The notes below the pieces were generated by a model. The model was not told the origin of the DNA. It saw nothing but the letters and a program-made list of their open reading frames with translations, and searched no databases. This document shows positions 10,553-60,670 of a stretch of DNA of 64,000 bases, one piece after another (positions within the stretch are counted from its first letter, which is position 1; the number at the start of each line of letters is the position of its first letter). Source of the DNA: Psilocybe cubensis (lineage: Eukaryota); contig CM039001.1 of the NCBI GenBank assembly GCA_017499595.2, forward strand, positions 124,001 through 188,000, read 5' to 3'. A program made the translations under genes and the position numbers.

Positions 10553-10670
10553 AGAAGAAAACTAGCTATAAGAAAAATCATTGAAGTCAAGCAAAGACGT
10601 ATCATGATGGTACAGGTAGTTATGGGAAGTATAGGCAGTGGTATGTACATGATCAGCAATCTTGTTGCTG
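10553..10670. repeat. ~120-bp dispersed direct repeat, copy 2
   Basis: Matches 5368-5486. Confidence 0.85.
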
Positions 10671-11345
10671 TTGTTGATGATTGTGTAGGTTTATTAATAG
10701 TGTGGCATTACAACGTTGGTTAAGCGCCCGCGGATTTGCACTTTCATTCATCCAATGTCCTCGCCTGTATCTCCTGTTCTCCTGTTTAGTATTCATTATT
10801 CTTAGTGATTGATTTTGCGTTTTTATTCAGTTGTTTTTGTTTTAGTAGGTTCATATTTTACCTGCAATGCTTGAAAAGTGCCTTCTAAAATAATGAATTT
10901 TGCTTCTCTACACCTCTTGTTTATCAGTTCCAAGACTTGGTGGAGTTGCATTAAAAACTGACCAATTCTGGTATTGGTGAGGGTAATTCTAAATTCAAGC
11001 CTTCATCACCGAAACACAAATATCTCTACCAACACAGTGGCGAGGAGACAACTGAACTCGAGGATCAACCTTTTGAACAGCGCTAACCAAAACCAGAACC
11101 GAGTAAATGAACCTAACAATATAAATGGGTACCTACTAAATAATTGACAGAACCTTGATAACGGTGTTTCTCTTAACGATATGGCATAACATTCCCAAGC
11201 GTATCTGAGAGATAAATTTTGTTCCTATTTGGAAAAAGTACCCCATCGATATCCTATAGCATTCCCTTTATATGAACGGATTATCGATTTATCTCTCAAT
11301 CTTACATTTGATATCATATCATCACCCAATACATCCTCATTAACT

Positions 11346-12167: not shown

Positions 12168-13223
12168 TTACAAGGCATTGAAACATATTTTGTTTGTTCC
12201 CCGGAGCGCGCCTGTTGTGGTTTAGTCAAACGCTTACCTACTATAACCAGCTGGCGTTAGCTATTTATTTTCTGTTCACTTTTTTATTGCTTAGTTAGTT
12301 CAGCTTCGATCTTTATAGGTTAAAAATTCAGCAGAATATCTACAAATCCTGTTCCTTTATGCACTTTTTTAAATTCTGGGTCTCGCTATTAGCCAACAAT
12401 AAGACAGCAAAAATGATTTTGCCATGAAATTAGCAGTGAAATCAGCAGATATGTTCAATGTATTGAATCACTGTCCGATGATTTTACATCCTAGAGTATC
12501 ACTAGTCTTTATTGGCAGACACTATTAATTGATACCTTGCTTATAGATTCGCAGATCTGTAGTATCAAAATGAGGACATGGATATCCCAGGCTAACATAT
12601 AGATTTTACAGGTCATATTGTCCAAATAGCGCTTGCATCATCCCGCTGGCCCACATACGCTTGTCCATCAAGCATTCATTCTATCAAGAAAAGAGAAGAA
12701 TAATTTATTCATAGTAACTCTACTGTGTAATCGGTGAGTATGTTGGCTTTCCATTCATGCCTTCACCGCTGCGGCACTAAAATGTCTGCTAGAATGATGG
12801 TTAGCTTCACCTTCCCACCTCCTCACAGAGTAAATTGAGAGCGGCAGGAATGGAGCCCACCTTTACCTAACCGCGCGAGCCGAAAACTTACCGTCAAGTA
12901 ACAAAACCCTTTTCACAGCACGGAGTAAAAAAAGGTTAATGGTTATTGTCAGAATCTTGCTAATATCGTGCTTATTGACAGTAGGCCGTATAACATTCCC
13001 AAGCACGTCCGAAACAGAGCTTGTTCATATCCGGCTTGTATCTCAAGCAGCTCTGCGCCACCAATGTCCTATAAAACTCACTTCATATACCAGGTACTTT
13101 GCAAAGTACAGCATACATCGAGTGTGCGAGCAGCTCTGCACAGCTCAGCCCACATTTCCACTGCACGCGTAAATCGTCAGACAACAATTCAGCTCATCTT
13201 ACTACCCAAAACACGCGTGCATT

Positions 13224-13778
13224 ATGTTGTATTCCACCTTATCTTTCCACCGCCTCACGCTTTTAATTGCTTTCGCGCTCGCACTATACCACGGCACCCG
13301 CCCCGTCTCTGCAACTGTACTGCCAGAATATCTCACCCACCGTGACGTAGTCGAGGACGCTAAATCAAAGGCCAAGGTGGATTTAGAGCCCGTAGATCCG
13401 AACGAACTTCCCCTTATTGATGCAACTGAAGACCAAGAAATATCCCATTTGATGAACAAAGTCATCGGGTCTGTGTTGATGAATGACCCCTTCGGAAAAC
13501 GCTCGAACACAGATGCACTCCCAGACATCTCATTTCCGTCTCGTGAAAACGATGATACAGACGCCGATGTGTATTTGAAGAGCCTGAGGGAAGTGGACGA
13601 CCTGCATGAGAAGAAGGCAATGAACGACGTGGAAGAGGAGGATCCAATGGAAAATGATGACGGGGATGCAGACATCACCGTGGCTGCTCGCGTGCTTGCA
13701 TTACTGCGTGCGCTATTCTCGGCTCTAGATGTTCAGAAGAGTTCCGGTGGAGAACGAAATCGGAGTCTGATTGTCTGA
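13224..13778 (+). CDS. Secreted acidic protein, family B copy 5
   Basis: Signal peptide LIAFALALYHGTRPVSATVLP; close paralogue of the 8741 gene, including upstream DNA. Confidence 0.72.
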   Translation: MLYSTLSFHRLTLLIAFALALYHGTRPVSATVLPEYLTHRDVVEDAKSKAKVDLEPVDPNELPLIDATEDQEISHLMNKVIGSVLMNDPFGKRSNTDALPDISFPSRENDDTDADVYLKSLREVDDLHEKKAMNDVEEEDPMENDDGDADITVAARVLALLRALFSALDVQKSSGGERNRSLIV

Positions 13779-31086: not shown

Positions 31087-33259
31087 TCAAACGAGCGTAG
31101 CACCGACACTCCTCCTCATCCCACTCTCCGTCTTCCACGCACCATGGCTCAACGAATGATGCGCATGAGGATGCGCATGCTGACTCTGATGTCCATACTG
31201 CTGCTGATGATGCCCATACTGCTGTTGCTGCTGCTGTTGCTGATGATGCTGCTGCTGATGGTAATACGAATCACCACCCATCGGCTGGGACTGCGTATGA
31301 TGGATATACGACGACGCCTGCACCTGAGCCGCCTGAGCCTGAGCTTGAGCCGCCTGCGCCTGTGCATGCGCCTGACCAAACGGCAACGGCAGCCTATGCT
31401 GCGCCTGCTGAGGCTGCGGCTGCATAACACCCACATCCGACTCTCTCCTCAAATACCTCTCCGACTGCTGCTGAATAGGCGCCAAAATCGGTGGCGGGCT
31501 CGCGTTGAACCGTGCCCCCGAAACACTGTTCCCAGCGACGACACTTGTGCTCGATGTCGGCGAAACCGATCCCGACGCGGACGTCGCGCCATGCAGACTC
31601 GACGTATACCCCAAAGTCTGCTGATGCGCATGATGGTGCTGCTCAACAGACTGCTGCGGTTGTTGAACCATACTATGGTGATACGAGCTACCTTCCACCT
31701 GCTGCTGCTGCTGCTGATGTTGGAAAACAGAGTAGGACGAGGGCGAGGCAGAACCTGCACTCGACGACTGCGGGTGCTGTGAATACGAAGCCTGCGATTG
31801 CGGATGCGAAATGTGCGAGATAGAGTGCCGCGAGTGCGGGCTGTGCCCCCGGCTCTGGCTCTGCTGCCCCTCCTGCTGGATCGTCGCAATAGGCGGGTAC
31901 CCATCATGCTGCACCGAAGACGACGACGACGACGATGCATACCCTCCAACCGACGACGAGTGCGAATGAGAATGAGAATGCGAATGCGAAGACGAGGACG
32001 AAGCGCCCGGAGAGGCAGACGACGAAGACGAGGACAGGTGCGGCGCAGGGGCTATCGGCGTGGTATGCACGTACGTATACCCCGCACCGTTCCCGCTCTG
32101 GCTCGGCGACTGCTCCTGGTACGTCGTCGTCGCATGCCTATAAGAATAGCCCGAGCTGGAACTCGAGCCGTTGGTGGTGCTATTATTACCGTGGTGACTC
32201 GTGTTCGCGTTGGAGTAACTCTGGCTTTGACTTTGATTCTGATTCTGGGAATGCGAGGACATCGGTGCCATGTGGTGTGTCTGCTGGTGGTGGTGGTGCT
32301 GAGAGTGAGATTGTGAATGCGAATGATGCGGGGAGGAAGACGAGTACGAGGAGAGCTGCGGCGACGCGGCCGATGCGGACAAGGGCGAATGGGATCCCGT
32401 GCGCAGCGGCAGCGGCAGTGTTGCTGTTGCAGGTAAAGTAGCGTGGGCGAGCGGAGGTGGCGAGTCTGGAGGGCTCACGTCGTGGTGTCCGTGGTGGTTT
32501 TGGGTGTGGTGGTGCGAGCCGTGGTGGGCGTACAGACGTGCAGGCTCGAGCGCAGGGGGAGGAGAGAGCGGTGGGGTCACAGGAAGACTGGGTTCCATAG
32601 ACAAGGGTGTAGATGCGGTGGTGTGGTTGTTTGACCCATTTGAAGAGGGTGTAGCAGATGAGGAGGGCGGGGGAGGCAGTGAGCCTTTCTTCAAGATGCG
32701 GCCAGTTGAGCCTGCGCGAGTCGAGCTACGGCGAGATCCTGGAGAAAGGTGGATCCGATAGCTGTGTAGAACAGCAAGTCAGCGCTGTGTCGAAATAGCC
32801 GAATATCCCAAAGACACCATAACCAAAGCTCCAATACAACATCACCACAAGGAAGAAGAAGGGGGAAAATCAGAACGGAAGAAAAGGAAAAGAGACGTAC
32901 TGCTGCTGCAAGTTGTCCTGGCGCGAGCACCGCGTTTCGCAACCGGGGAAGGGGCATTTGTGGTTGCGTTCACCGGTGTGTACGCGAGAGTGCCTGGCGA
33001 GATGGCCGCTGGTGGTGAACGCCCGGTCACATGTACCGCATACGTGCTTCTTCTTGGCGCCCGGGGTTGTACTGGCTGCGCTGCTGCTTGTATTGCTGCT
33101 GTTGCTGTTCGAGTGACTATGGTGGGTCTGGTGGGCGGAGACGGGGGAGAGCGGTGGGGACGCAGAGGATGAGGACGAGTCGTGGAGATATTGGGAGTTG
33201 GAGAACTGTGAGTGGTAGAACTGGGCGGATATGTGTTTGACAGACTCGACGCGAGGCAT
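31087..33259 (-). CDS. Two-finger C2H2 transcription factor, Nrg1-like, with long Ser/His/Gln-rich tail (intron ~32762-32900)
   Basis: [49 protein letters not shown]|YRIH joins in frame to the 535-aa ORF. Confidence 0.88.
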
Positions 33260-36200
33260 GGCTGTTTGTCGAGAGAGGAGAAGTGGAAAAGTGTGCTAAG
33301 GGAAAGGCCAAAAAGCGAAGATGGGCGGTAAATATAAAGAGATCACGACTCGCGCTGTGGATCTGTCAGTGCTGCAAAAGGGGGATTCTTGGCGCATGAG
33401 AATTGAATAAAATAAAAAACATTAATTCCGTTTTAGACACTGTCAATTTGGGAACATATCAAAACGAATAAATAAATTCTTCCATCAATTTCTTCTCTTT
33501 TAGGTTAAAATCCGTGCCCATCGAAGCCCCCAAATCTAAGGCACGTGGCAACCAGCCTGGCTTCCTTCCTCCAGCCTTTTGCGATGCCTGCCTCCTCTGC
33601 CTCACCCCCCAAAACATTTGTTTTGTCTCGTCATAATTATATCGGTCCCATAGCCGCATTCGCATCATCCACTTCCTGGGCCCTTCTTATCTCTTTATGC
33701 CTGCCTCCCAGTTTCCCCACAAACATCCTGCCCTCGTCCTTGTAAAAATAATAATAGCCTTCTTTCTTCTCGTGTTTCACCGTTGACGCATTCTTGCATA
33801 CGCACAAACTAGAACCCATACGCCAGACTCCAAACCAGACCCAAAGGTGCGTTTGTCCTCTCTTTGTCAGGCACCAATTTCCGTCATTCGTACACGTAAA
33901 AATTTGCCACTAGATAATATTCGGTTCGCCAATTAGATCGCCTCTCTCCACCATCCCCTGTCGTCTTTCGTCCAATCATCCAACAAAAAAAGTTACATAA
34001 CCCATCCCAATACATACAAAACATACATACCTCTCTCAACCAGCACAACACAACACTGACGGAATGTTGACTACACATACAGTCACCCTTCCCCATACGT
34101 TTTAGGTCTGGCTATCATATCAATTCATCTATTTATCTGGGTCACGGACATCTTTTATGTATCTATCTATACATCTCTCCAGTCTACAGATCCCGTTTCC
34201 GCATATTCCAGATCCTGGGAAACGAGATGATACTTCTACCTCCGTTAGGGTCTTCCCCCCTAGTCCCTACACAGTCTTGTCCGGCTCACACCCTCCTTAC
34301 TGGCTGCACCCACCCGAATGCGGTGGGCAAGGCATCCACCTACGGCTCGGCTTACTGGGGAAGTCCGATATTTATCGGTCTTCACCGCATCGATTTCGAT
34401 CACTCCAAATTCAATTCAATTCAATACATTGCATTTTGGCATTCCGCCGTTCGTTCCTCTCAGAGTTGATCAGGAGGGATGAGAGGGGGGGGCGGTTAAG
34501 TCAGTGCGTTCGTTCATACACTGTTCATACATACGTACGTTAATTTCCCTGCGTTGCGCTGTTTCGGCTTTTCATTCAAAAGGTGAACTGCACATGAATC
34601 TAGTCTAAAAGAGGGAATCCGGGACCGACACGACCAAAGATGCGAATTATGAATTTGTTGCCACGCCGCCGCCCGCGTTCGCGCTAGCACAACAGCAACA
34701 GCCTCGCTCACCTCACCAGTCTAAAGTCTCCCGCACGCACTCCCCAGCAGTCCGAACGCTGCGACAGCGATACGTACGATAAGTAATATACGCACATTAC
34801 TCATTGAAAAACTCAGAAGTCGCTCTGCACATGCACAACGCTTCTCTGCCTGCATATAGCAAATACCTAATCCATCTGGCATCAACGGCGTGTGTGCGTG
34901 CGCCTGCCTTGTTTTCAAACTTCAACGACAATCTCGCGTTCTTCGCCTTCTCAAATTCTCAAATTCTCGACTTCTCATATTCCCAATCCCCGAAAAGGGC
35001 GGGGGGTCATCCCCGACTCCTGTTACTATCAGATATAATAATATAAGTAGTCAGATACTATCGGAGGCATCGCGGGAGTCTTGTATTACTATTACTATTA
35101 GATGTTATTACTATTACTACATACTAGTCAGGTGAGGTTCTTGTTCTATCGTACCAGGCCAGGATCGGCGATAGACGCCGTGACGTCTGAGACGGCGTCA
35201 GTAAGGCCATCCACTTTACCAAGAGCATCAATGAGAGATAAGTGATTATGTACATACGTGCTTAGATTAAGAAGAACAAGAACAAGAAGTCGGGCCAATA
35301 TTACATAGGAAGAAGTGCATATACGTATACATACAATGGCAGATGCTACCTGTAACCTGAGTGCCATTTTGCAATTCATTCCAACATATAGAGCGTTATG
35401 AAAGTCAGTCAGTCAGATCGTATTATATCCCAATGACTCTGAATGAGTAATGATATACCCCAGAGTAGTATCAATCACCATCATTTTGTATGTACCTCGC
35501 CTTCATCGCCATAATATAAACAATCACAATGACGGATGACTCGTAGTCGTCAATCCAGAGTACAATGATGACTACAATACAATGCAGTGCAAGTAAAGCA
35601 TATACGACAGAGACGCGATACAAATTAATCCCGAAACCAAGTTGCCTCAATCCGTTAACTTAAGGTTTCCAACTTTGTTTATCTCAATCTCCATCCCAGC
35701 GCTAAATCAAAGTCAGTAAAACAATCATGATCTATCAGATCATGGATGTTCCATCCACACCCAACGTTGGCAATTGATAATCGGAATCAACACCGGTATC
35801 TTTAATAAAGGACCCCTCTTTCAATTAAGTGTTCAGTATACAAGACTTATCAGTCCACCCACGACGGACAACTTGAAAAATTGCAATCAATTATCGCTGA
35901 TTACACTCGTACGTGCGGCATCATCACCCAACGGACAAACACACACGTATCCAATGCGCACGGTACCACGCGCACCGTCCCATCGCCAAACCCCTCTCCC
36001 GACCGAACGCTCCGACGCAGAGCAGTCACACCGACCGACAAACGCGATGCATAAGTAGTGACTGTCCAGTTGCTTAAAAATCCAGCAAAAAAACGTCATA
36101 TGTTCACCAGAAGCGTTGCACAACCGTGGGCGGGTGGGGCTTCGTATTTTCCCGTTTTCCCGCTCCACTGACAGACGAAGCGTAGCGCACAGACCACACC

Positions 36201-44420: not shown

Positions 44421-45283
44421 CCAACTCTGGTGATATAGATCCGCCCGTATAAGCCAGTCCTACTACCATCTTCCCACTCTGTCTAAGTTATCTGGAATAA
44501 TTCCTTTTCCATATAAATTTCTGTTTGTATATCAGTGTACAAGATTTCTGATATCAAACACAGATTCATTCATTGTGCTTCCCGAGATAATCCCAAAGAA
44601 ACGTCGCCCTTTTTCTCTAGCTGTTTTAAGACACAAGTATAAGCCTCATGGATCAGGAACATGCTTCGGCTGTACTGTTTCCCAACTCGGGAGGGACAGG
44701 CCCTTGTAAGCCATTAATTTTGACGCCCGATTCTAGTCATTCCACTGTGTTCTTCAGAAACACACCCTAAATGCTAAAAGATCAATGAACCACGACTCTT
44801 ATACCGCCTAATCTATGACCACCTATTTTCTTATTCTCAGATCCAGGGTACAATCTCAGGGATGTACGCGAGCCTGGCGATCCGTGAAGTTTAATCTATT
44901 CATCATGATTGCCTCTGATAGGCTGATTACCTCTTAATTTGACTTTACCGTTTAATAGCTACGCGACTGCCCTGCGCTTATGACCTCCGAGAGCTTCCTA
45001 CTTGAGAGGGGACGCTGATCCGCTTGCAGATGATGAATGCTGCAACATAATTCGCATGACCTTGGCGAATAGCAATGGGCTTGATCTAATCTAAATGTAT
45101 ACATACTCCCCATCCTGGGCATAATCTGATTAATCGCAGTATCATATGGTGACGACAAACATAATTATAAGATAAACACATGGTATGCATAACATGGATA
45201 TCACGACTTCACAAAATAACAGTCGGGGGGTCATACTCAAAACGAGATCAAGAAAAGATCGCAAACGCAGATTCAACGCGACC

Positions 45284-47174
45284 TCATGATTCTTCCTTCG
45301 CCGGTTGCTTCTCGCCTTTGACATCATTAGGGTCCGCCAGTGTAACCTCAGACGTCCCTTCGAGCTCGATTGTCGACGTCGATCCGGGAATTTCAAGTGG
45401 CTCCGCGACGACCCCTCGACCCAGTATCCCTCCCCCATCACCAGTACTGTCACCAGCCTCACCACCCACTGCACGTCTAGCAGCCTCCTTGTTTGTGATC
45501 TTGACAGTCACGTCCCTGTCCCCAAAGACCTCACCCAGCTGCTCGAGGGTCTTCCCTGCCGTCTCCCTATATACGAGCCAAACAAAAATGCCAGAGATCG
45601 CAGAGAAGCCTAGCAACAGGAAATAGTACCCGGCCTTGAGCGTCGCGAAGAGCGGTGGAGTGATGAAAGCCACGACAAAGTTTGATATCCAGTTGACACC
45701 TGTGGATAGAGCCATGCCCTTTGCACGGGCGCGCAGGGGGAATACTTCGGCGCCCAGAAGCCATGGTACAGGACCCCACCTAGAAAAGATGATGAGTATG
45801 ATGAGTCAATAAGGTTAAGAGACAATGAGCGCTACATACGTAGCACCGAATATAAACAAATATATGCAAACACCTATGTTGAGATGAGGAATGATAAATC
45901 TCCAGGGCAAACGATACTGCAATGTGTGGACTCACCGGCAAAAATACCATCTGCAGTGCTTATTCGTGCGTTGCCTAGAGGTAGAGTTTCAACATAGAAC
46001 TGAAGACCACCGATAAGCGCCAAAGATCCGACGAGACCAGCGCTTCCAAACAGCAAGAATGATTTACGACCCCAGGTGTCGACAAAGAACATTGTTGGAA
46101 TAGTGCCAGCACAGTAGACAAGCGCGCACGCGCCAGAATAGAGTAACGACTGTCCGATATCGAAGCCTGCTCGTGTAAGATTTTCAGGAAGGAAATACAG
46201 GATAGCGTTGATCCCATTGAACTGCGCGAACAGCTGGCAGGTGATGCCTACAATTGTTCGTCGGGTGTATTGGGTGAAAAGCTGTCCCCAAGTAGCCTGG
46301 CCCATAGAATCCTCGAGAAGAATAGCTCCTTCAATGGCTGCATAGGATTCTCCTACTAGAGGATCGTACAAGTCGCCATTAGCATGTAGATCGGCAATGG
46401 CGGCGAAGCCTTCCTTTTTGAAGTCATTTTTGATGAGCCAACGCGGGGATTCCGGGAGAAAGAACGTCCAGATTACGAGTATCACTGCCAGGATGGCTTG
46501 TATGATGTATGGGCCCCTCCACGATAGCTCTGAGGGCATGTCAAAAAAGAAACCATAGCCAACCCATGCGGAAAGAGCATAGCCCGAGTTTAGACAAAAA
46601 TATTCAATGGACACGAACAGCCCTCGCCCATGGCCTGGTGCAATTTCACACTGATAGATTGGGACTGTCATTGACAGCATTCCAACCCCAAGACCTTGGA
46701 TGCAACGCCCGACTATTAGAGTGGCAAGATTCGGCATGAATATCTGTATGATGGAAGCAATAAGGTATATGATGCCCCCTATACGAATCGACATGCGTCG
46801 GCCGAGTATGTCACAAATATAGGCTGCTGCAAGCGATGCAACAAGCGCAGTCAAGTTGAGGCATGCAACCACAATGGCTAAAAAAGTTTGATCAAGGTTC
46901 AGCATAAGGAGATGCCCAACGGAAAGGGGTGGCACACACCTTGCACGAACTCATCAACTCCTTCTACTCCGGCTTGAACCTGTTCAAGCGTGACATCCTT
47001 TCCATACATACGCCGAATAAACGATGGCTGCACTTGCGCTGCAGCTATGATGCCTTGACTGTATCCAAACATGGCATCGCCCAAAGAAGCCAGTGCAGAA
47101 GAGGAGTAAAGCAACCTTTTTCCGACCATCCATCTAGGATATCGTACGGTGTATGAGCTCCGCTGTAGTGTCAT
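45284..47174 (-). CDS. MFS sugar porter family transporter
   Basis: MFGYSQG, DILGRR, PIYQCEIAP...RG, LPESPRWL, QFNGINAILY, DTWGRK, ETAGKTLE. Confidence 0.92.
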
Positions 47175-47522
47175 CGTATAGAGCGGTGTGGAGAAGGAAT
47201 AAATCCGCAAAGAATATGGGACTCATGTTATTTGAATGCTGGGTATGTTTCGGTCGTCGTTGGAATGTAAAGGGGGAAGCTCAAGATGTTGCCGGGTATC
47301 ATTGCCATACTTGTTTGTCAGTACCCTCAATACCAAACATAGCATCACGGCCACCTGACTAGATTTAGTTTCGGCACCGCATGATTGCGTGTGCGCCGTG
47401 TCGCTGACTGCTTAACACCGCCTCCTTGGACCCCTGGCAACCCACTATAACCTGCCGGCGCTGTACTCAAAACGCCTTTATAGACCAATATACGGGCATG
47501 AAACTCTCTATCTCCTACCAAC

Positions 47523-49930
47523 ATGCCCTCAGACGAACTCGAGGAAATCAGTGGCATCAAGCCTAAAGTATGGCTACCTGACGGCCAAGAACGCGAAGTT
47601 AGCTCACAGTCCAGGTGGGTTGCGCTTTATTATAAGGAACTTCGCATTCATTAGGAAGAACCCACGTCCTGAGTTCGACACTTCCCGGATTCAAATGAAT
47701 GACGCGTCGCTTGATTTGTTGATTGGACCCATAATGCTGACATGATTTTTACTACGTTTTCAGCAATTCAGTGTACAAGGTCAAACGAACGTTTGACCAC
47801 TACTACTGGTAAGTGTATACATTTTCTATATCACTCGCAAATTGTTATTGACGCCTCTTATCCACAATTTCGGAACTGCGCAGTACATGCCCGGTAAGAC
47901 TTACCCGCCTTATCACATCCGATTCCATTATCGTGACTCACATACTCTGTCAATTCTTCTCTAGGCGTGGCGAAATCAGGTAAGACAAGCCACCTTCTCT
48001 CCGGGTTCTGCCCGTAGCGAGAAGGCGGTTCTCAGAGTGTTTTCATTAAATTCCATCAACAGGGCGGTTCACCAGTAAATGCTCGCACATGCAAGCATCT
48101 CCGAGCCCTACTTGGTGATGACTATGAGCTTGCTCGCGTCAAAATGAAGAATCCAGATGGTCCCCAACCAAAGCACACTACCAAACGTCAAATAAAATCT
48201 ACATCGAAATCTAATCCAACCGCAACCACATCTTCAACGGCCAGCTCTAAGCGCAAGACGCGTGCTGCTGACGACGATGAAGGACTTCAAGCGGACGAGG
48301 AAGATGACAAACCTCCAACAAAACGATCGAAAGTCGCTCCTTCATCATCGAAAGGCAAAGGAAAGAAAACTAATGCAGACGATGACGCCGAAGACGCCGA
48401 GGATCAAGCAGATGATGACGAGAATGAAAATGCGCCGGTTGGGAAGGCTGTCCCAGAGCTTTTGCTCGCAAACAAGTGGGACCTTGAAAAAGGTCTTGAC
48501 CCGACAGGTTGGTGGCTGTCCGAGAAGCTCGACGGTGTTAGGTGCGTCGTACAGATCAGCAATTACATCAATCGAGACACATCATGGCTCACGACATATC
48601 ACAAAGAACGTTTTATGACGGCAATCAACTTATCAGTCGACTTGGTAACCCATTTACTCCACCAAATTGGTTCCTCGACAGTAAGTTATGTCCTCGACAT
48701 TCTTATGCGGCACAACTGATGACAGATCAATAAACGCGCCTTAACAGAGCTCCCCAAGGGCGTTACACTCGATGGCGAACTTTACGGGGGTCGAGGCAAC
48801 TTCCAGTCGACCGTGTCAATCGTAAAGACTGTCAACTCTGTTCATTGGAAAAACATCAGCTTCCAAGTGTGTCACATTAATCTACTTCCTGAAATAATTA
48901 ACGCTACGATTTGTTGTCCCTTCGCTCATTGTCTACATGTTTCATGTCACTTCTTTTTTATTCTCAATCTTGTTACCATGATACTGATTGGTTGTCCAAT
49001 AAATCATCTAGATATTTGATGTACCTTCGCGAGGGCATGAGCCATTCGAAGAGCGGTACAAGTTCTTACAAGAGACATTCGGCGTTGGCGGAGTACATGC
49101 AGCTGACCAGATCTGTGTGGTCGAGCACGAGCTGGCAAAAAGTCGGCAGCACGTCCTTGACAAGCTGAAGGAAGTTGAAGGGTTAGGGGGTGAAGGACTC
49201 ATGCTTCGCAAACCTCAATCGTGAGTACGCGTTCACGGTCGTCAATGCCTTGCGTGTTTCATAGTTCAAACTATAGCGTTTATGAAGGAAAGCGCTCGGG
49301 AAGTCTCCTCAAAATCAAGACTTTCTACGATGCGGAAGCCATAGTCACTGGTCATGCACCTGGAAAAGGTCGTAACAAAGGAATCACCGGAGCACTTATG
49401 TGCAAGATGGAGTCCGGAAAAGTACGTCTATGTTCCCTGTTTCTACCTCCAAGCCCCATCATGATACAGATCATCAATATCACTCCGACTATCCCCTTTG
49501 CTCTTATCTTCCCTTCGTCGCCCCCTTCGGAATTTGCTTTGTCTTGTCCCTTCATTTCGATAATAATAGTATTTACGCTGATTAATACGTCTTATTATGC
49601 TTAGCTCTTCAACGTGGGCTCCGGTCTTACAGATAAAATTCGGAAAGAGCCACCCAAAATCGGTTCAATTATTACCTATCGCTTCCAAGAGTTGACAAGA
49701 GACGGTGTTCCTCGGTATGTACTCTTTCTTAGTCCACTTTCATGACTCTTCATCTATTTTGCGTCTCTACTTTGTCTTTTGTTATTGCACCCGTAAACTC
49801 GCTGCTAACACTGTTCCGATTGCAATATAGCTTCCCGTCTTACATCGGGCTTGCTGTCGACAAAGATAGACCCAAAGATGCTGAAATTCCCGAGCATCGC
49901 AAGGCTGGAGCTGCGGGCGGAAGTGCATGA
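47523..49930 (+). CDS. SWIM zinc finger + minimal ATP-dependent DNA ligase (adenylation + OB domains)
   Basis: Spliced N-terminus ...YKVKRTFDHYYCTCPAWRNQ...RTCKHL; acidic/basic linker; ligase motifs SEKLDGVR, LDGEL, FQIFD, EGLMLR, LLKIK; OB domain FNVGSGLTD...TYRFQELTRDGVPRFP. Confidence 0.87.
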
Positions 49931-51906
49931 GCGCTATCCGCAATGCATGCTCCTTCACACGCGTCCAGGTACCGTCTAACCATAATCAGGTTACTTCCGA
50001 CCCTTGGACCAGAAAATACGAGTAAACTCGTATAAGTGTAGGTATTTTTTCATTCTTCGTGTAGTGTTTCGGTATTTTCCTTGCTTGCTCGGATTTATGG
50101 ACGTGCCCCATGGGACAAGGTTCGAGCATACTACTATACGTATCTAAAGAGGTGTTTTATTACTTTAGTCCTTTTTATGCTGTCAGCTTCCATTCAACTT
50201 AGTAAGAGTCGGTATTCCAGAGTCGGGTCAAGCAAGCAGCGTCGTGTCACTCTGGATATTTCCGATTTCTATTTTCTCTCATTCCCTTGATCTACAATGG
50301 TGCTGTTATAATTGAACATTGTTTCAATGCTTTTTAGGACATTTTTTGGTATTCAATTGCTTCTATCATTTCGTTGTCATAATTTAACGCGAGACATCGG
50401 TCCCCAAAGATAGATGGCAAACCACGGTAAGCATGGGCTATGCAACATCTTTTCCACCCATTGACCTATTTACGACGTCTTTTCAATTCCATGTTTCAAC
50501 ATATCATGGCAATGATATTCAACATACCTCTGCGGGAAATTAAATAGAATTCACGGCGTACCGTTTCCTGATCGAACCCAAGCCTTGCCAGACATCTTAA
50601 CAGACGTCGAGATTCCGTATAACAATGCCATGACACGCAATACGAATTAAATAAGCACCTCAAATGTAATGTACTTTATACTGCTATGTAGATACACTCC
50701 TCTGCAGTACTATTGTAGCGACCGAGATTGTCGATTTTCCTGCACTGTTTGAAGTTTTGGTCCAGTCTGGAATGTTGCACTCACTGGCCAGGTGTTCAAA
50801 GTCGAACCAATATTCGTTCTTCAATAATTGGATTGTTTTTCGTGCAGCGCTTTCACATTTCTGAAGCGCATGATACATCTCGGGGATGTTGTCGTTCCTG
50901 TGTGTGTCATGGCGTCGGTCGGGTTGGAGTGCCCCTATCCGCCACTATAAATCATGGCACGGCAAAGGAATGGCCGGTTACCCGGAAGATATTTGAGCGC
51001 CGCTTCAATCATGAATGGGAGACATCGGACCACAATGCACATCAGCTTCGTTCCTACCACCACCACATCGTTGAAGGCCATGTCTAACTTCCGGCCATTT
51101 CTGTATTCTGCAAAACCTATATATATATCTGGCTGCATATCATTCTACTCAACACGTGCATTGAGGGGTTGCCCTTTGGTCCAACTGTGCTCAGCTTCTT
51201 ATTAAAATTTGGTCAAGATCTGTTCCACGTAACGACACTAGCACTGGCCTACATTTGCACCACCTCTCCGACGACTAGCCTTGGATATCTACGAGTCTTC
51301 TCTTTTCTGCTCTACATCAAACATTGCACTTCTAAGGGCCATGTCGACTCTTGGGCTCTGGCAGTTAGTCGTGTTCAGCTCTACTGTGCAATAAGGTTCG
51401 CACTGTTCAATAGTCACCTCTCAAAGTGGAATTGGTGTCATACCTTCACTTGGATAGACGGAATCCGCAGTTTCTTTGGAGATTTTCTATCTATTGTACT
51501 CCTTGTATTCGACGCTATTGGTGCATCAGCGTTCATACATGTGGCAAACCCTCTTCTGGCCGATTTCTACCGACATCAATTCCGTGAATACGGTTGATGT
51601 GCGCAGTCCTCTCCATAGGACAAATTAATCGCTAACTCTTTGAGTGCTAATGATTTGTCACTTTGTATCTCTTCTCTGCATTCTAAACTTCTAGCAACAT
51701 TACAGGAATGACGAACTTGCAGTTGTCACTTCTCTCGACTCGCATATCTTTGTCATCACTCATATAGTCCCCCAACTCGTCATCGATGCTCGGTTTATGA
51801 TTTTGGTTATGCAGTGGAGTCTTTTGATATATAAGTTTGAGGACTCTTGCCAGATTGTTCACCAAAACGCCCACACTACTGAGAAACTCAAATCATTGCC
51901 CAAATT

Positions 51907-52899
51907 ATGTTGAGCTCCATTATTTTCTCTTCTCTTATCATCGCGCGCTGTAGTGCACTTCCTCAATATGGCAATACAAACTCTGGGAACGCTGCCGACA
52001 ATACAGGGGACTCAGTCGACGATACGGTCAATGGCTATCAAAGCCCACCTATCTGGAACTGGCCTGCCTTATTTGCCGCTGAAACAACCGCGGGAGGCGC
52101 CAATGTCGCCGCAGATACCAGTGGCAGCGCCAATAATCTCGGTTCGGGTCCGAGTGGGGTCATCTATCGTCCCATCTCACAAGCTTCCTCTGACGGCCCA
52201 GTAGCGGCAAATAGTATCCAAGCAGATGCCTCGTCATCCAGTGGATCTCAGTGTCTGTCCAGTCGCGAGCCTCAATTCGGGAATGGCGTCAATGGATTGT
52301 TCGACTGTGCAAACGGAGGCGACAATAGCGGCAACGGCTATGGCGGATCGAGCAACGGCAACGAGAATGAAGGTAGCGGGACCGCGCCCGTTAATCAATC
52401 GTCATCCGACACCACTATCGCTGGCAACGAGCCAGTTGACGACACCAATGCAGCTAGCAGCACTACTACTAGCAGCACAAGCTCCCCAAGCAACATCAGA
52501 AACCCACCGTTTGAGCCAGTAGGCACCGTGAGTGGAGCTGGTGGAAGCACCGATACGAGTAACCCCCCATTTGAGCCAGTAGACACAGAAAATGGTTCTA
52601 GCGGAGTCAGCAGTGATTCCAGCGAAACTGAGAATCCACCTAACGAGAACATCGGAACCAACAACAATTCTACTTCGACTCAAGGCGGTGGTGGTACCCA
52701 GGACTCCACTAACTATAACGATGGCGGGTGTGTCCTTGGTCGAGAACCTCAGATCGGAAATGGTGTTAGTGGCCAAACTGGATGCGGAAATGGCGGCAAT
52801 GATAGCGGCAATGGCAGTGGGGGTTCTGACAGCGGGAATGGAAACAATGCTGGGGATTCCGGAGATTCTGAACAGGATGATGTAGTATCCGTTGAATAA
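51907..52899 (+). CDS. Secreted Gly/Asn/Ser-rich protein with two Cys-bracketed REPQ(F/I)GNG modules
   Basis: Signal peptide ...RCSA-LPQYGN; modules CLSSREPQFGNGVNGLFDC... and CVLGREPQIGNGVSGQTGC...; NPPFEPV repeats. Confidence 0.82.
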   Translation: MLSSIIFSSLIIARCSALPQYGNTNSGNAADNTGDSVDDTVNGYQSPPIWNWPALFAAETTAGGANVAADTSGSANNLGSGPSGVIYRPISQASSDGPVAANSIQADASSSSGSQCLSSREPQFGNGVNGLFDCANGGDNSGNGYGGSSNGNENEGSGTAPVNQSSSDTTIAGNEPVDDTNAASSTTTSSTSSPSNIRNPPFEPVGTVSGAGGSTDTSNPPFEPVDTENGSSGVSSDSSETENPPNENIGTNNNSTSTQGGGGTQDSTNYNDGGCVLGREPQIGNGVSGQTGCGNGGNDSGNGSGGSDSGNGNNAGDSGDSEQDDVVSVE

Positions 52900-53438
52900 G
52901 CGTCAGCGGTCGGGGTTCAGGGATGGGTCTGAATAGTTGATGATATGTTACTGAAGGAAAATAAGAAAACATACAAATGAACAAACTTATAAGTGTGATG
53001 ACCACCAGTAATTCGAGCGTGGCCTGATATTAATCATCATAATACTGGCTCAGAAAAATGAAATCAACGGGTACAAGTCATTTAGTTGTGACCTCGATAA
53101 ATCATCAATATAGGCATCTTTACTGTACTCTCCCCACTTGAGAGTATACTCATATAGATCGCGAATTGTAAGGTACAAATCTAGTTTAGTCCACCGTATC
53201 CACACAAGCTCATTGACAGGTTCTTTTTATTTCTATGAAGTAATTCAATGTTCTTCATGCCAGACCATTTTGATTGAATTTAAGCATACATAATGCTGAA
53301 CACATATTGTTTATCGAATTTTCATATTCTTACCAGGTAAAAGAAACAGAGAGTAGACGAAAAAGCATTTTTTTATATATTTGATAGAACCTCTTGATTA
53401 TCATACAGTTTTCCAACGTTCAATGTTCATTCCCATTA

Positions 53439-54137
53439 TCAGTCGTAGTACCCCCCGTTCCCGTTTCCGTTGTTGGATCCTCCATATCCGTTACCACTGA
53501 AGCTACCTCCATTTCCAGAGTTTGTGTTTCCGTTATTCGCATTTCCAAACTGACGACGATAGTGGTAGCCCCCGTTGTTGTTCCCGTTGTAGGATCCTCC
53601 CGAACCGTTACCGCTGTAGCTGCCTCCATTGCCGGAGTTCGTGTTTCCGTTATTGGCATTGCCAAACTGTGGCTCCGGGGCAGCCTCGCGGCGGTCGTAG
53701 TAGCCCCCATTGTAGTTCCCGTTGTAGGATCCTCCATAACCGTTGCCGCTGCCGCTACCTCCATTACCTGAGTTAGTGTTGCCATTGTTGGCGTTCCCGA
53801 ACTGGGGCTCTGGCTCGCGTCGGTACCAGTATCCTCCGTTGTTGTTGCCATTGTTGCTACCGCCTACGCCATTGCCGCTGTTGCTCCCACCATTTCCTGA
53901 GTTCGTGTTCCCGTTGTTTCCGTTTCCGAACTGGGGTTCAGGTAAAGCTTCGCGTCTGTAATAATAACCACCATTGCTGTTGCCATTGTTTGACCCGCCT
54001 ATGCCGTTGCCGCTGTTGCTGCCTCCATTTCCAGAATTAGTGTTTCCGTTGTTGTTGTTTCCAAATTGCGGGAGGGCAAGCGCCTGTGCAATGAAGGCGG
54101 TGACAAGGAGAGTCTTTAGAGTTGACGAGGGGAACAT
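53439..54137 (-). CDS. KEX2-processed repeat protein (KEP): five 37-aa cores
   Basis: Signal peptide; cores QFGNxNNGNTNSGNGGSxSGNGxGGSxNGNxNGGYx(Y/D) separated by RR plus X-A/X-P dipeptides; probable 5'-UTR intron 54144-54196. Confidence 0.9.
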   Translation of the reverse strand: MFPSSTLKTLLVTAFIAQALALPQFGNNNNGNTNSGNGGSNSGNGIGGSNNGNSNGGYYYRREALPEPQFGNGNNGNTNSGNGGSNSGNGVGGSNNGNNNGGYWYRREPEPQFGNANNGNTNSGNGGSGSGNGYGGSYNGNYNGGYYDRREAAPEPQFGNANNGNTNSGNGGSYSGNGSGGSYNGNNNGGYHYRRQFGNANNGNTNSGNGGSFSGNGYGGSNNGNGNGGYYD

Positions 54138-55373
54138 TTTCGACTAGCATCCAAGATCAAAATTTAGACAGCAAATGAACGATGAAATTTACATACCTAT
54201 TGATTGAATAAAACTTGCAATATCTTCAGGGAGGTCAGCACCGTTGCCTATTTGAAATATAACTTTAGAAAAGCAATTCCTACCAAATTTTGGTCTGGCG
54301 CTTCGGATATACTTTCGAATGACGAAGTGAAAGCAGTATAACCTCCATTATATACACCGAAGATGCGCAGTCAAGAAGCTCATAGTCTCTTGCTGGTGAA
54401 GGTATAGATTCTATTTTTTCACTTAGTACATGAACTAATGACTGACGAAAATTGCATGCTATGAGCAAGAAGAAGGTAATAGTTCAGGTTTCACTTCGTA
54501 GATGCACATTTGTGAATATTTCGATCACAAACCTCCCTAAATCGCACTTTCACAAGTGCCATATCCGCATATGTCATTAGAAAATGTGCTTCCAGAATGT
54601 GTTAGTACCAAACTGTCGAATCATATACGTTTAATGGTACGGAATGGGGCACGGAAAGACCCACAGCACTACGCCGCGAGAACACTTGCGCCGTATTAAT
54701 GTCGCCTTTGTGGAGAATGTTGAACTGTAGTGCTTCTAGACAGTAATACAGAAATACCACCCACATTTATTCTGGAGTAACGGAGAGGACTGTCCCCATT
54801 TTACCAGACTTACCGAAGCTCTGTGTGTTGAAGGTTGATCACGATCGCAGGTGCTGTGAGGACTAGTCTGCAACATGATTGTTATTCGGTTCAATAGACG
54901 CCCAGGGCCATGCCTGCCCAACGCGCTCAATAATCTTTAATTTTAACGGCTTTAAACTCGTACTAACCCCTGACAAGGTTGACTTAATGAGTTCACGAGG
55001 CTTCTGCCGATCATCCGTCATACAATCGGCTTGGAAGTCGAAAAGCCCGAATGTCAACTACAGGGATCTCTGCGTCTATTTGAATCCAGAATTGTGCGTA
55101 GTGCATCTCATTGAACTATGATAGTATACTTCTTTGCTAGCTATCTACCTTTAATGTGGCAAAGATACTAGTATTTACATTGACCTAATCGATACGAGTA
55201 CAGAATTCATACGACTTTGAGCCTGAACTACTTTCTTCCGAGAGCTTCCGAGCTCCCTGTCTCGTATACGCTAACTGCGAGAGGTAAGGCTCCATGTGAA
55301 TGTGATGAGAAATACATTTTGAATCATATCGAATCTCTTCCATATTCAAATTTGCTGGCCGAGCGATCTGTTA

Positions 55374-56654
55374 TCAGACGGAGTAGTCATTTTCACCCAA
55401 GGGTTTATTGATGATTGGAAGTGAATTTGAGTTTGAAATTCGAAGGGTGACACATTCGACGGAGATCATAGTCTTCATTGCCATTTCCAAATCGCTGAAA
55501 AGGATGTTGTATGATTGTAGACTGAAAGAATGCAATTTGCATTTGGATTCGACAATAAACCTGGAAATTTCCTGCCCCGGCGCACATTTAAGATCGTGTG
55601 CTTCTTTCCATGTAATTTCGAGCATTTGGAGTCGTGGAGTTGCGATGTATTTCAAAAATAATGTGGGACATTCCTTGCCGTTCAAAGAGAACTCACGCAG
55701 TTTTGGAAGAACCAAACGGTACCCCACTGGGACCGGCGGACATCGAATGGGCACGGCACTCTTATGAAGCTTCAAGGTACAGACCTCAAGAAATAATGCA
55801 GCTGCGAGAATGTCCAAGTAATCTGACGCCTCAGAGTAAAGACCGTCAAGATCCAAATGCGTGAGACGAAACCAGTCAACGAGAATTCCTCCTGGGTAGC
55901 TGTTGTGGATTCTATCCTCCACATGTATTGTAAGTCGCGTCAAGCTAACCAACGCGCGGATGTCGAGCCCACACAATCGAAGCTCCTCTTGCCCCTGCTT
56001 GGAGCAAATCACAATCTCCTCCAGACTGGAGAGGTCTCTCCGACGTGACTTGTGCATGAGAAGAAAAATAGCAGAAGGTCCGGATGCAAGAGATCTCCAA
56101 TATTGGTGATTTCCCAGCTGGTTCAGAACACGGTTTGATTTGTTGTAGAAAATGCCACCATCAAAGTTATAATCGATGGTAACATCCATTGGAAGTGGCC
56201 TAGCGCGCTCGAAGTGATGTGCCACCAAAGGTAAGTCGTTGATCTGAATACTATCGAGTGAGACGTCATAACATAGGTTAATCTGGATGTCGTTCCAATG
56301 ATGAATGAAGTACGAAGCAACCATATTCCAGTTCCAGCATACAAGCATATAGGTGCACAACTCTTGATGGTTGTAGGCGTTATAGCGAATAATTTTTTCC
56401 AATAGTTTGTCCGAGAGCCTTCTGACCGGGGATATGACGGAGGCATACTTTCGTCGTATTTCCAGTATATGCTCTCTCTCTGTTAAAATCTGGCGTTTCT
56501 CTGCCTGGGTCCTGTACTTTAGCGTGTGATGCAGCTTTGCAAGGTCATCGTCAAGACTTTTAACTGTAGAAAGAATGTGGGGAATGACCGAGGGATGTGG
56601 AGCGATGTTAGATATTAACAGGGTGGGAATGTCCCTTGGATAGAAATTCGGCAT
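55374..56654 (-). CDS. F-box-like / RNI-like LRR protein (intronless)
   Basis: 426-aa ORF; coiled-coil then SPVRRLSDKLLEKI...LVCWNWN (F-box-like) and LTHLDL/LREFSL/LQMLEI repeats. Confidence 0.7.
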   Translation of the reverse strand: MPNFYPRDIPTLLISNIAPHPSVIPHILSTVKSLDDDLAKLHHTLKYRTQAEKRQILTEREHILEIRRKYASVISPVRRLSDKLLEKIIRYNAYNHQELCTYMLVCWNWNMVASYFIHHWNDIQINLCYDVSLDSIQINDLPLVAHHFERARPLPMDVTIDYNFDGGIFYNKSNRVLNQLGNHQYWRSLASGPSAIFLLMHKSRRRDLSSLEEIVICSKQGQEELRLCGLDIRALVSLTRLTIHVEDRIHNSYPGGILVDWFRLTHLDLDGLYSEASDYLDILAAALFLEVCTLKLHKSAVPIRCPPVPVGYRLVLPKLREFSLNGKECPTLFLKYIATPRLQMLEITWKEAHDLKCAPGQEISRFIVESKCKLHSFSLQSYNILFSDLEMAMKTMISVECVTLRISNSNSLPIINKPLGENDYSV

Positions 56655-57105
56655 ATCTGACAGCGTGTTTAGGCAACTTTAAGTACCTGGGCAGGGGTGA
56701 AAGTACATGAGGATGTATGAACTGTGTGTGTGGCTGATGTTATAGATGTTTTGTTTGGTCGTCCATGTCACGCGATTGGCAAGGCCACTACCCAACGTTT
56801 CATTGTTGAACGGATTGGTGATTTGACCCAGAGGCCCGAGTTCCATCAACTTCCAAATGCGTTGAAGAATTTTCTGTGCCACGTAGAGTGAAATGCAGCC
56901 ATCTTTCTTTCTTACTCACGAGAAACGGGACGATCTTTCCTGATCTTTCACTCTACAAAATATCGTGAATTGGATTGAGGCTGAAGCTGAAGCTGAAGTG
57001 GTGCTTTCAAGTCAGTTTCAATGCGACTAACAACACATTTGCATTTCCTCTACATACGAGTTTAGCATTCAGGTTACTATGGGCACTTGGAGGCACGTAC
57101 ACAGT

Positions 57106-57576
57106 TTACTGTCTTTTACCCTTTCCCTTGGGTATACGGTCAAGCCCAACATCTGAGAGGAAGCATATCCTCATTGTAGCGCCAGCGTACACAAATCCTA
57201 CACTTCCCCACATCATAGCATTCCATTCCCAGAATTTCCAAAAGACCGCCATTCCCGCCGGTGCCATTGTTATCAAATGTCCAAAATCAGCTACGAGTAA
57301 CCCTATCAAGAGTTTCTTCCAAGTCACGATGGATGTCGTTGATGAGAGAACAAAGTGTTCGTTTAGAGCAAAAAGCAGGTAGAGGTTGGCCAGCTGGAGG
57401 AGTGCCATGTTCGTTTGTGTGGGAAGTACAGTGTGTGTGAGCTGAGAACTAAAAGTGAGGTCCTTGAGGTAATCATCTTGCCTGAATGCGGCGTAGAAGG
57501 CCCCTGCCAGTGCAGATATGGGCTCAATGTATAGGAAGAAGGCCCTGTAGAGGAAGGGTACTGATGGCGGAGTCAT
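57106..57576 (-). CDS. Small multi-pass membrane protein, conserved fungal type, function unknown
   Basis: 156-aa ORF with about four hydrophobic segments; FFLYIEP, QLANLYLLFALNE, LLVADFGHL. Confidence 0.75.
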   Translation of the reverse strand: MTPPSVPFLYRAFFLYIEPISALAGAFYAAFRQDDYLKDLTFSSQLTHTVLPTQTNMALLQLANLYLLFALNEHFVLSSTTSIVTWKKLLIGLLVADFGHLITMAPAGMAVFWKFWEWNAMMWGSVGFVYAGATMRICFLSDVGLDRIPKGKGKRQ

Positions 57577-57847
57577 GGTAGGATGGAAGTGAGAAAGCTT
57601 CCGCAGTCAAGGTTGTATTCGGTGTTTAAATCCATTATTAGAGCATATCGTTAGGCAAGCCATCGTTGAACCTTTTTCGACTTAGTTGATCGTGAGACAA
57701 CTTTGGAACATAGAAATACAATTCAGTTTAATACGGTGTTAATACATTTCATGATTTGACTCTTATTACTCCTCATTTGGTTTGCATGACTATGTTACAA
57801 TGTTTGCAATCGAATGTCGAGCCTTCAATGATCCTTTGCTACAATCT

Positions 57848-58603
57848 TTAAAATGCGTTACGTTCCCATTCCTTAAAATCTTGCTTTGCTTGTCGATCTG
57901 CAAATCCTCGATCTATACATTGATGTATCAGCACATCACAGCTGCCAGTAATAATGAGTTGGGAAATGGAGAAGAAACGTACCTTGATTTCCAAATGATT
58001 GGCGGGCATCTTGGGCAGCGCCAGTTGATCCTTGATTAAGGCCCATATATCCGGCGCCTCCACCAGTAGCTGCAAGACCTTCTACCATCCCTTCTCCAGC
58101 CGATCCATGTCCTACTCCATGATGGCCTCCAAGGCCGCCAGTGTGGGTCGTATCATAAGGACCCGAACCCGTTCCAGCAGAAGCATGTGTTCCCGGGATG
58201 TTGCTCACGCCAGTGTTCCGATTCTCATACTGGCCCAGGTCGTTTCCAGAGAAGGGTCCTGCACCGCTGCCATGCCCGCGGAAGCCTTCGTTTCCGGTGG
58301 TTCCAAACTGTAAAACCATCCTCGTTAGCCAGAACAACACACATGTTTGTGATGTCACCCATACATTGTTCCCTTGCCCTTTAGTTTCTTTCGCATCTCG
58401 CACTTCGGCATTGCCGAGTTGATGCTCTTCTCGTCCACTCTGCTTCATATTGGCACTCTTAATGGCACCTCCGACTGTCTCTTTAATTGCGCCTTTCATA
58501 GAGTGCATTTGACCAGAGGTCTTGCTGTATAGTTTACATTCAGCGTACTGGTAAGCAAAGAATCATAAATCACGAACCTTGGGGAAGTATTTGAAGATGA
58601 CAT
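57848..58603 (-). CDS. CsbD/Hmp1-like stress protein with Gly-rich tail (3 introns)
   Basis: MSSSNTSP|SKTSGQMHSMKGAIKETVG...SGREEHQLGNAE resembles fungal Hmp1/CsbD-like proteins; last exon ...KEWERNAF*. Confidence 0.7.
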
Positions 58604-59391
58604 GTTGGTTTGTAAGAGTTATTGGTAACGATTGATTTGATAAAAGTTGTAAGTTGTTGGTATAGTTGATTAGCGTTGTTCGCAAAATATCAGGTCAATA
58701 TATACCTTTCATTACGGTGATCACGATTTTTGCGTCATAAGACGATTCCTTGTCATTGCATTCCATACGTCAAATGCAACGTAGGTTGAGGAGTGCCCTG
58801 TGGTGTGGAATAGGGAGCATGAGGTGGGGATAAACCGTATTGGGAAGACGGTAGTGGTGCTTACTCCATTTCTCGGCGCTAATAGGGAAACAACGTCATC
58901 ATGTAGCTTCGCCACTGCACAAGTAGTAGATGAAGCCGAAACTTGCAGATGTATGAGGGCGCTATTCAAGGTTGTCCATGGACTATCCAAGAGTAGGCGT
59001 ACGCATTCATTAATGAGAAAACGAACAGTCGCAGTACGTTAATTAGTGACGCCTGCTTGGCCCGTGCACGCTGATTAAAGCGGAGACTCATATTAGTGAT
59101 CCGTTTGATCAGAATATTGATCGTCAATATGTTGGCAGGCAGGGCTCCCTGAAAGAGGAGGAACACCTGCCAGAGGATTGGAATAGGATGAAGGGAGGTC
59201 TAGTGGGTACTGTACTTTTGTTTTTTCGTGTTTTTCGTCAATTTTTCGTTTAAGACAAATTATCCGGGCTGTCACACAAGTGGCCCAACTGTCCAATGAT
59301 TGTCTTCGTAAACTGTGACACTATGTAACGCTCAAATACTCACAAACCAACTGCCAAATAACTTCCAACCGCCAACCAACTAAAGACAGAC

Positions 59392-60670
59392 ATGACATCG
59401 CTGCCACCGGAAGTCCCTCGCAGACTTCGGCATCTCGCTCACGTCGTAAGCGCATACAATGCGTGTCTGAGACTCGAGGCGTCCATTCAACAAGCCATTA
59501 ACGACAATAGCGAGGATGTTGGGAAGAAAATGATATACGCTCGCATCCTTGGATATCTTATCCATTATGTGCCCACAGATCAAGGACTGAAAACAATTGT
59601 CGACGAGATTGCTTCATGCAAAGACGACACCGCTTGTCTGCAGCTGGGAAGAATGTATTTCGACCATTACATTAGGGCGTGTATGTTTTCCTGACTCTAC
59701 CTATTCTGTCTGTATCTAATGCAACTAGTCAGTTAAAGCGAAAAAAGGTCGCACACCAACACCTTCCAGTCATGCATCTCGGCCCTCCTTCGATACGATA
59801 CAAGACATGATCAAAGACACCTTGGTAGAGGCCCCCCAATCCCATAGGCAAGCTAAGCAACTGGTCGGTGTTGTTCTCCCTTTTCACGCGTTCTTGCTCA
59901 CCCTTATTATCAGGCCCTTATACGTGATGGTTATCGTTGTGTTGTAACAGGCGGATACGATGCCAGCTCAGTCCGCACTATCGCGGAGTTAAAGCGAAGA
60001 GTCACGTCGGACCCTAAGGGGGTGTCAGCGCTGACAGAGTGTGCTCACATATTTGCTGAGTCCACTAATGCTTCCATCGGCCCAGGCTCGGAGAAAGTAT
60101 GCCGCCTTTTATCCATTTTGACACCTAATAACAATATCCTCTAATAGCGCGAGTATGCTGCCAGTATGTGGGCGGTAATGACGCGCTTCGGTTACGAAAA
60201 ACGTCCGGAGGAACTAAATGGCGCCCGGATCCACCGATTAGAAAACATACTGACTTTGGTTCCAAACTTTCATGGGCTTTTTGATCTATTACAGGTTTGG
60301 TTTACCGCAACGGTATGTCCAATGTGCCGTTGGGCCCTTTGATATAAAACTAACATTTTGTTTACACCTTCATCAGGAGATCGAAAATAAATATAAACTC
60401 GAAGCAGTAGATTCCTTGATATTACGACCCTATCCTGAATATGTTACATTTACGTCACCCGATCCCGCCAAATACCCCCTTCCATCGCCGGTGTACCTTG
60501 CAATTCATGCTGCATGCGCCAAGGTTGCTCATCTATCTGGGGCAGCTGCATACATCGATAAATACAATGAAGATTTGGACGACAGTACGACACTCGATCC
60601 GAGCGGTAAATCTGCAGACCTGCTTGAACACGCGCTTTTCAAGGGACTGCAGGCATTGGCCCAAGTTTAG
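59392..60670 (+). CDS. Fungal HNH endonuclease-domain protein, multi-exon
   Basis: ALIRDGYRCVVTG, ECAHIF, RLENILTL...HGLFD, LPSPVYLAIHAACAKVAHLSGAA. Confidence 0.82.

Follow-up and report, generated by a model that had tools for sequence, protein, structure and literature searches.

KEX2-processed repeat proteins (KEPs) are widespread, and almost all of them lack an assigned function. In agaric KEPs, cleavage at RR, removal of X-A/X-P dipeptides, cleavage after a single Arg and formation of pyroglutamate (pyroGlu) have been demonstrated (PMC9769878). Basidiomycete KEPs with a Ste13 signature (PMC9769878 and the available portions of PMC6339444 and PMC7329392) share with the locus described here a signal peptide, repeats, RR sites, X-A/X-P dipeptides and Gln-initial cores expected to become pyroGlu. 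Longer products occur in Ustilago, where Kex2-released peptides of 34–53 aa form amyloid in the walls (PMC3133707, accessible part). In agarics, the KEP MiSSP8 has been linked with the aggregation of hyphae, although its products are tetrapeptides (10.1101/218131, accessible part).

Within the window, i.e., the 64,000-nucleotide stretch of Psilocybe cubensis DNA analysed here, a single gene encodes P0001, a KEP with a Ste13 signature and thus a member of a published class (Table 1). Whereas characterised KEP cores are mostly 7–20 aa long and, for example, Trp-ending, those of P0001 are 37-aa low-complexity Gly/Asn/Ser sequences. The N-terminus contains a hydrophobic stretch and an A-x-A site, predicted as a signal peptide from hydropathy and family alignment, and A21-L22-P23-Q24 is unchanged in 5/5 aligned family rows. 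Splitting the ORF at RR recovered the spacer layout (signal-LP, RR-EALPEP, RR-EPEP, RR-EAAPEP, RR) and the five QFGN-initial cores of the original prediction, with all lengths, starts and C-termini as claimed there. Every core is exactly 37 aa long, the five are 81–92% identical, and RR occupies 4/4 junctions. X-A/X-P dipeptides precede four of the five cores, core 5 following straight after RR.

Table 1. Positions of the P0001 gene, its neighbour and their parts within the window
Feature	Position	Strand	Description
KEP gene P0001	53439..54137	(-)	intronless, single 232-aa ORF including stop
Predicted signal peptide	54075..54137	(-)	aa 1-21, ending A-L-A; hydropathy peak 2.4 and family alignment
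LP dipeptide	54069-54074	(-)	between signal peptide and core 1
Core 1	53958..54068	(-)	37 aa, C-terminus YYY
Spacer	53934..53957	(-)	RR + EA-LP-EP
Core 2	53823..53933	(-)	37 aa, C-terminus YWY
Spacer	53805..53822	(-)	RR + EP-EP
Core 3	53694..53804	(-)	37 aa, C-terminus YYD
Spacer	53670..53693	(-)	RR + EA-AP-EP
Core 4	53559..53669	(-)	37 aa, C-terminus YHY, sole N-glycosylation sequon
RR	53553..53558	(-)	no spacer, directly preceding core 5
Core 5	53442..53552	(-)	37 aa, C-terminus YYD at stop
Paralog P0004	51907..52899	(+)	330 aa, tail-to-tail with P0001; signal-LP-QYGN, two module copies, S/T-rich acidic stalk
P0004 unit 1	52252..52368	(+)	Cys(-7)...R-EP-QFGN...Cys(+12)
P0004 unit 2	52729..52845	(+)	Cys(-7)...R-EP-QIGN...Cys(+12)

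The cores are strongly biased in composition, with 12–13 Gly, 11–14 Asn+Gln (30–38% N+Q), no Pro and at most one charged residue each (D/E/K/R in cores 1–5: 0, 0, 1, 0, 1). The description of the cores as nearly uncharged therefore stands, while "almost all G/N/S" was slightly overstated, these residues making up 73–81% of each core. Aromatic/His residues number 4–6 per core, and the 2–5 Tyr are grouped at the C-terminus. GRAVY values range from -1.38 to -1.49, with 0–1 I/L/V/M per core, and every Pro and nearly all charge of the precursor are located in the removable spacers. The usual prion-domain criterion is 30 N+Q in an 80-residue window; the best such window of P0001 has 28, and the term "prion" is not literally applicable because the protein is secreted. 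TRF detects the repeat array, and autocorrelation peaks at lags 5, 7 and 9 reflect a pentapeptide rhythm, x-G-N-x-N. Curlin and mycobacterial pentapeptide repeats bear a resemblance to P0001, which matched none of the Pfam repeat models (E up to 1). Sequons occur once against 8.3 expected; avoidance of sequons was dropped as a property, since P = 0.0004 with independent shuffles became 0.08 with column shuffles that keep the relatedness of the units.

Comparison of the units revealed that 30/37 core positions are invariant, yet the unit DNA is only 70–82% identical. Over the 10 pairs, pS was 0.52–0.94 and pN 0.06–0.15; dN/dS was 0.03–0.10 in the 4/10 correctable pairs, the other six being saturated. 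Invariant residues despite diverged DNA, with pS far above pN, indicate that the repeats are old and under protein-level selection. The exact length, the invariance and the near-saturated synonymous sites place this selection along the entire core and not on a short motif.

Of five sequencing runs that contain the stretch, none recorded as RNA, four were compared over positions 44500–59500. Run X1 contains CT..AC joints at three places in minus-strand neighbour genes and leaves most intergenic DNA uncovered; because of these spliced joints and the bare intergenic DNA we read it as RNA, though the run record does not label it so. A single ungapped X1 contig (53450–54132) covers the P0001 gene and another (51964–52968) the neighbour at 51907–52899, and on this reading both genes are therefore transcribed and free of introns. 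The contig depth on the P0001 gene is 358.6, a measure that cannot rank genes, and the lack of a contig on the KEP gene in X2, from the same study, is not evidence of regulation. X1 and X5 cover the five-unit array without gaps, and none of the indels listed for X3 falls inside it. A variant at 53681, found in X1 and X3, changes EA-AP-EP to EA-SP-EP and retains the X-A/X-P dipeptide rhythm.

Other parts of the window yielded several observations. A CsbD-like Gly-rich stress protein gene at 57936–58560 (-) is spliced in X1. At 6001–13778 (+), a tandem secreted family of five ORFs has similar signal-peptide-like starts, several of them followed by RR/KR and acidic tracts, and one ORF carries a long Ser/Asp run at 11640–12050. 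A C2H2 zinc-finger ORF at 31087–33295 (-) adjoins a long His/Gln/Ser-rich low-complexity frame.

Given this anatomy and the published agaric data, P0001 is very probably processed to pyroGlu-capped 37-mers. Signal peptidase would take off aa 1–21; in the Golgi, kexin would cleave after each RR and Kex1 would trim the RR. A Ste13-type dipeptidyl peptidase would then strip LP, EA, EP and AP down to Gln, and the exposed Gln would cyclise to pyroGlu, blocking further trimming, so that five neutral 37-mers could be secreted. The calculated monoisotopic masses of the five pyroGlu cores are 3581.41, 3560.40, 3608.38, 3611.40 and 3543.36, and each core has 5–6 Asn-Gly pairs at which Asn could deamidate. 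The genome (46.6 Mb, 21 contigs, with the P0001 gene on contig C4) encodes three P_proprotein (kexin-type) loci, equal to the three kex2 genes reported in agarics, and one DPPIV_N gene. With these enzyme families in the genome and the same processing in agarics (PMC9769878), the originally proposed Kex2/Kex1/Ste13/pyroGlu route is well founded. In the search for a glutaminyl cyclase, the top of 12 M28 matches is not one by inspection. Kex2 is tolerant at P2, according to the accessible part of PMC2515848. On contig C7 at 2,619–2,627 kb (L015, L016, L027), a tandem pair of genes with a kexin-type P domain adjoins a secreted M28 aminopeptidase-like gene.

The paralog next door, P0004, had been missed in the original prediction. 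Its module copies each follow R-EP, the stalk that links them is 34% S+T with four sequons, and the protein is 52% identical to its Psilocybe cyanescens ortholog, CVT25_010516. Another paralog, on contig C7 (L002:1501-2202 (+) = C7:626729), has four cores of 40–52 aa, EPEPEP spacers, mostly single-Arg cleavage sites and longer, Tyr/Pro/His-rich tails; it lies upstream of two aldehyde dehydrogenases. A truncated, frameshifted copy with W-Y-R-EP spacers, 30 kb beyond the C7 paralog (L026:2200-2536 (-), C7 ~658.2–658.5 kb), is probably a decaying pseudogene. The genome thus has three intact members of the family and one that is broken.

To describe the family beyond this genome, an HMM search of all 1.84 billion representatives was used, which returned 4 proteins with E values up to 0.001. 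Three word-based searches, each scoring 8000 candidates, gave 1, 4 and 5 matches, mostly rows of the query alignment. Relatives outside this genome come from Psilocybe cyanescens (2) and Galerina marginata (3), all annotated as hypothetical; the family range may exceed these genera, because low complexity lowers search sensitivity. Pfam contained 0 families matching P0001 at E up to 1, and a search of the PDB with a profile of the core gave 0 sequences (E up to 10). The C-terminal half of the P. cyanescens protein PPQ92488 (P0005) resembles a G/N-rich gene read in antisense, and its gene model may be wrong; the best match of this half to a family gene had E = 0.09.

The shared module is a 32-residue G/N scaffold, present as 17 units in 8 proteins. 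Besides positions fixed by the search pattern, G3, G8 and N32 are invariant in 17/17 units, and positions 5, 6, 17, 18, 23, 27 and 31 are free to vary. Two architectures were distinguished: Tyr-tailed multi-core KEPs (P0001 and the C7 paralog) versus the Cys-pair type of the neighbour. An aromatic/Tyr tail is missing from P0004 and the Galerina members and is hence not a family-wide feature. Cys(-7) and Cys(+12), which flank the cleavage site, are both present in 5/5 complete Cys units and both absent in 11/11 others, a count that omits one unit without a Gln start (P0008) and does not represent 16 independent events because the units are related. The proteins carrying this pair have no other cysteines in their mature part. 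Their co-occurrence suggests a defined loop, in which a Cys(-7)–Cys(+12) disulfide would close 18 residues and tether the module to the stalk after cleavage.

From their composition, the processed P0001 peptides may self-associate into a hydrophilic extracellular gel or fibril matrix, an interpretation that we favour tentatively and with somewhat less than even confidence. The Pro-rich acidic spacers and Arg pairs would keep the precursor soluble, and the freed Pro-free Gly/Asn/Ser cores could be held together by hydrogen-bond ladders of Asn side chains, by turns at Gly and by contacts between aromatics. On the surface of hyphae or in the space between them, the product would form a hydrophilic matrix, either a gel or cross-beta fibrils, that is adhesive or water-holding and not water repellent; P0004 may present its copies of the module on a glycosylated stalk. 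The structural, self-associating role originally proposed is in this respect plausible, and its gel/fibril form is suggested because the core make-up fits polar low-complexity gel or fibril formers, not a surfactant. Fungal Pro-free G/N-rich repeats have been classed as amyloid-type (PMC8786786, accessible part), and Gly-rich low-complexity domains that form hydrogels include cuticle proteins (PMC8551513, accessible part).

Structure prediction was uninformative for the whole of P0001 (AlphaFold2, mean pLDDT 41) and for three units with a 5-row alignment (mean pLDDT 30). A four-copy complex model of core 5 scored 0.03, with unfolded controls, and so bears on assembly in neither direction. The ESM Atlas gave no usable feature match for P0001 (TM at most 0.47) and matches at 0.75–0.76 for P0004, which are leads only. 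Against assembly, one third of the core is Gly, which favours disorder, and Ste13 trimming with a pyroGlu cap would yield exactly defined ends, as is typical for ligands. In Coprinopsis, knocking out six kep genes produced no phenotype in growth or fruiting (PMC9769878). As the searches found it only in Psilocybe and Galerina, the family does not qualify as a structural component common to mushrooms.

The peptides, or shorter fragments of them, could instead be soluble hormone- or pheromone-like ligands for a fungal receptor, acting in development or self-recognition. The original prediction had set a hormone-like role aside; this exclusion was not borne out, and we keep the ligand reading as an unlikely alternative. 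The anatomy is alpha-factor-like, with X-A/X-P spacers before most cores, and the constant QFGN start combined with variable aromatic tails among paralogs could encode specificity. The accessible part of PMC6339444 argues that Ste13-signature basidiomycete KEPs are hormone candidates, but the same text gives an alpha-pheromone range of 9–24 aa, which the 37-aa cores exceed. Whole-length conservation of a low-complexity sequence would also be unusual for a ligand, and no receptor family was detected among the 64 ORFs of window positions 34–64 kb, where short exons could be missed.

A function in defence or biotic interaction, in which the Gly-rich cores would be antimicrobial or bind surfaces, perhaps in aggregated form, appears improbable. 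PMC9769878 concludes that the KEP peptides of agarics probably serve biotic interactions, and a narrow, expanding and decaying family fits fast-turnover interaction genes. The cores, however, lack amphipathicity and have a neutral to slightly acidic character, unlike membrane-active peptides, and other synthetic agaric KEP peptides were without antibacterial activity in the same study.

Oxidative cross-linking of Tyr by a laccase into a covalent matrix, or dikaritin-like DUF3328 cyclisation, is quite improbable as the main fate of the cores. Their Tyr content and its C-terminal clustering would suit it, and the start of the C7 paralog lies ~1.8 kb beyond the last of three multicopper oxidases in tandem; by solved-structure search, the nearest of these is a laccase. 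Nevertheless, a short ORF with a signal-peptide-like start (L022:8548-8800 (+)) intervenes between that oxidase and the paralog, and 10/17 multicopper oxidase loci lie within this 0.8-Mb section of C7, so that for a random gene there the chance of falling within 2 kb of one is ~5%. The proximity, noticed after the fact, thus has a chance of ~5% locally and 0.15% genome-wide, and the laccase link is a lead only. None of 19 multicopper oxidase matches lies on the P0001 contig C4, and P0004 and the Galerina members have no Tyr tails. The cross-linking suggested in the original prediction is hence favoured by the position of the C7 paralog and disfavoured by that of P0001 and by the restricted distribution of the tail. 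No tailoring enzyme was found near P0001, the 64 ORFs of 34–64 kb giving only a sugar transporter, DUF7704 and a CsbD-like protein. A dikaritin precursor was rejected, as 0/21 UstYa matches fall on C4 or C7 and none among these 64 ORFs.

It is very improbable that P0001 works largely uncut, as a beta-solenoid-like or disordered repeat polypeptide or a mere nitrogen store: paralogs retain only single-Arg sites (H-R, Y-R, S-R, G-R) and the x-G-N-x-N rhythm would suit a repeat fold, but all P0001 junctions are RR, spacer lengths change only in dipeptide steps, natural variant included, agaric KEPs are cleaved after single Arg too (PMC9769878), and strict sequence conservation makes storage unlikely.

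Returning to the self-assembly reading, a close precedent for a structural KEP is Rep1 of Ustilago maydis, also a basidiomycete, to which the peptides had been likened. The length of 37 aa lies within the 34–53 aa of the Kex2-released Rep1 peptides, so that length and release agree. Rep1 peptides are amphipathic (PMC3133707, accessible part) and have no Ste13 signature (PMC6339444, accessible part), whereas the P0001 cores are strongly hydrophilic and the precursor has the signature. A Rep1-type repellent was rejected for P0001 at a GRAVY of about -1.45 and 0–1 aliphatic residues per core, and profile and word-based homology searches of the family returned no Ustilago/Rep1 match.

P0001 belongs to a known class, and comparison with published KEP catalogues had a mixed outcome for its family. 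PPQ92562, PPQ92488, KDR79621 and KDR79629 are not rows of Umemura Table S2 (PMC7329392, accessible part), while KDR79619, whose accession lies two numbers away from that of a Galerina relative, appears there as a stand-alone KEP; a family member may therefore already be catalogued, though uncharacterised. The core motif was not found in the accessible parts of the KEP catalogues, a weak result as Table S2 gives accessions only, nor in the accessible text of PMC10282164. The full-text literature, whose coverage leaves out most subscription papers, contained no paper on the family. We regard as new the 32-residue G/N core module and the small, unnamed Psilocybe/Galerina family with its two architectures, for which no Pfam, PDB or literature match was found. 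Should the peptides assemble, fungi would have a second, hydrophilic type of protease-activated structural peptide alongside the repellents, and alpha-factor-style processing would prove able to turn assembly on. If they do not, the family is one more narrow-range orphan KEP family. The peptides are short, neutral and easily synthesised, so their function is cheaply testable.

The compositional idea has precedent in Geosiphon (Glomeromycotina), whose GpRIC1-3 proteins are, like P0001, secreted, G/N-rich and Pro-poor, with KR sites, possible Kex2 release and a predicted amyloid-type character (PMC8786786, accessible part). They belong to another phylum, were not returned by homology search and have no Ste13/pyroGlu design reported in that part of the source, so the likeness is one of analogy only. 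The P0001 cores are also similar to the Gly/Tyr/Ser-rich polar domains with interspersed aromatics (LARKS) of FUS and hnRNPA1/A2, which form hydrogels (PMC8551513, accessible part). Those domains are intracellular and part of large proteins, whereas the P0001 peptides are short, secreted and end-capped, and there is no homology between them. A two-component assembly in Psilocybe and Galerina is conceivable but rather unlikely: the pyroGlu-capped G/N peptides of the KEPs would polymerise, the disulfide-held module of the adjacent, co-expressed P0004 on its glycosylated stalk would act as nucleator or anchor, and the Tyr tails would be available for laccase cross-linking. Curli assembly follows a subunit-plus-nucleator logic, and the proposed pair of KEP and P0004 would be its fungal counterpart in that logic.
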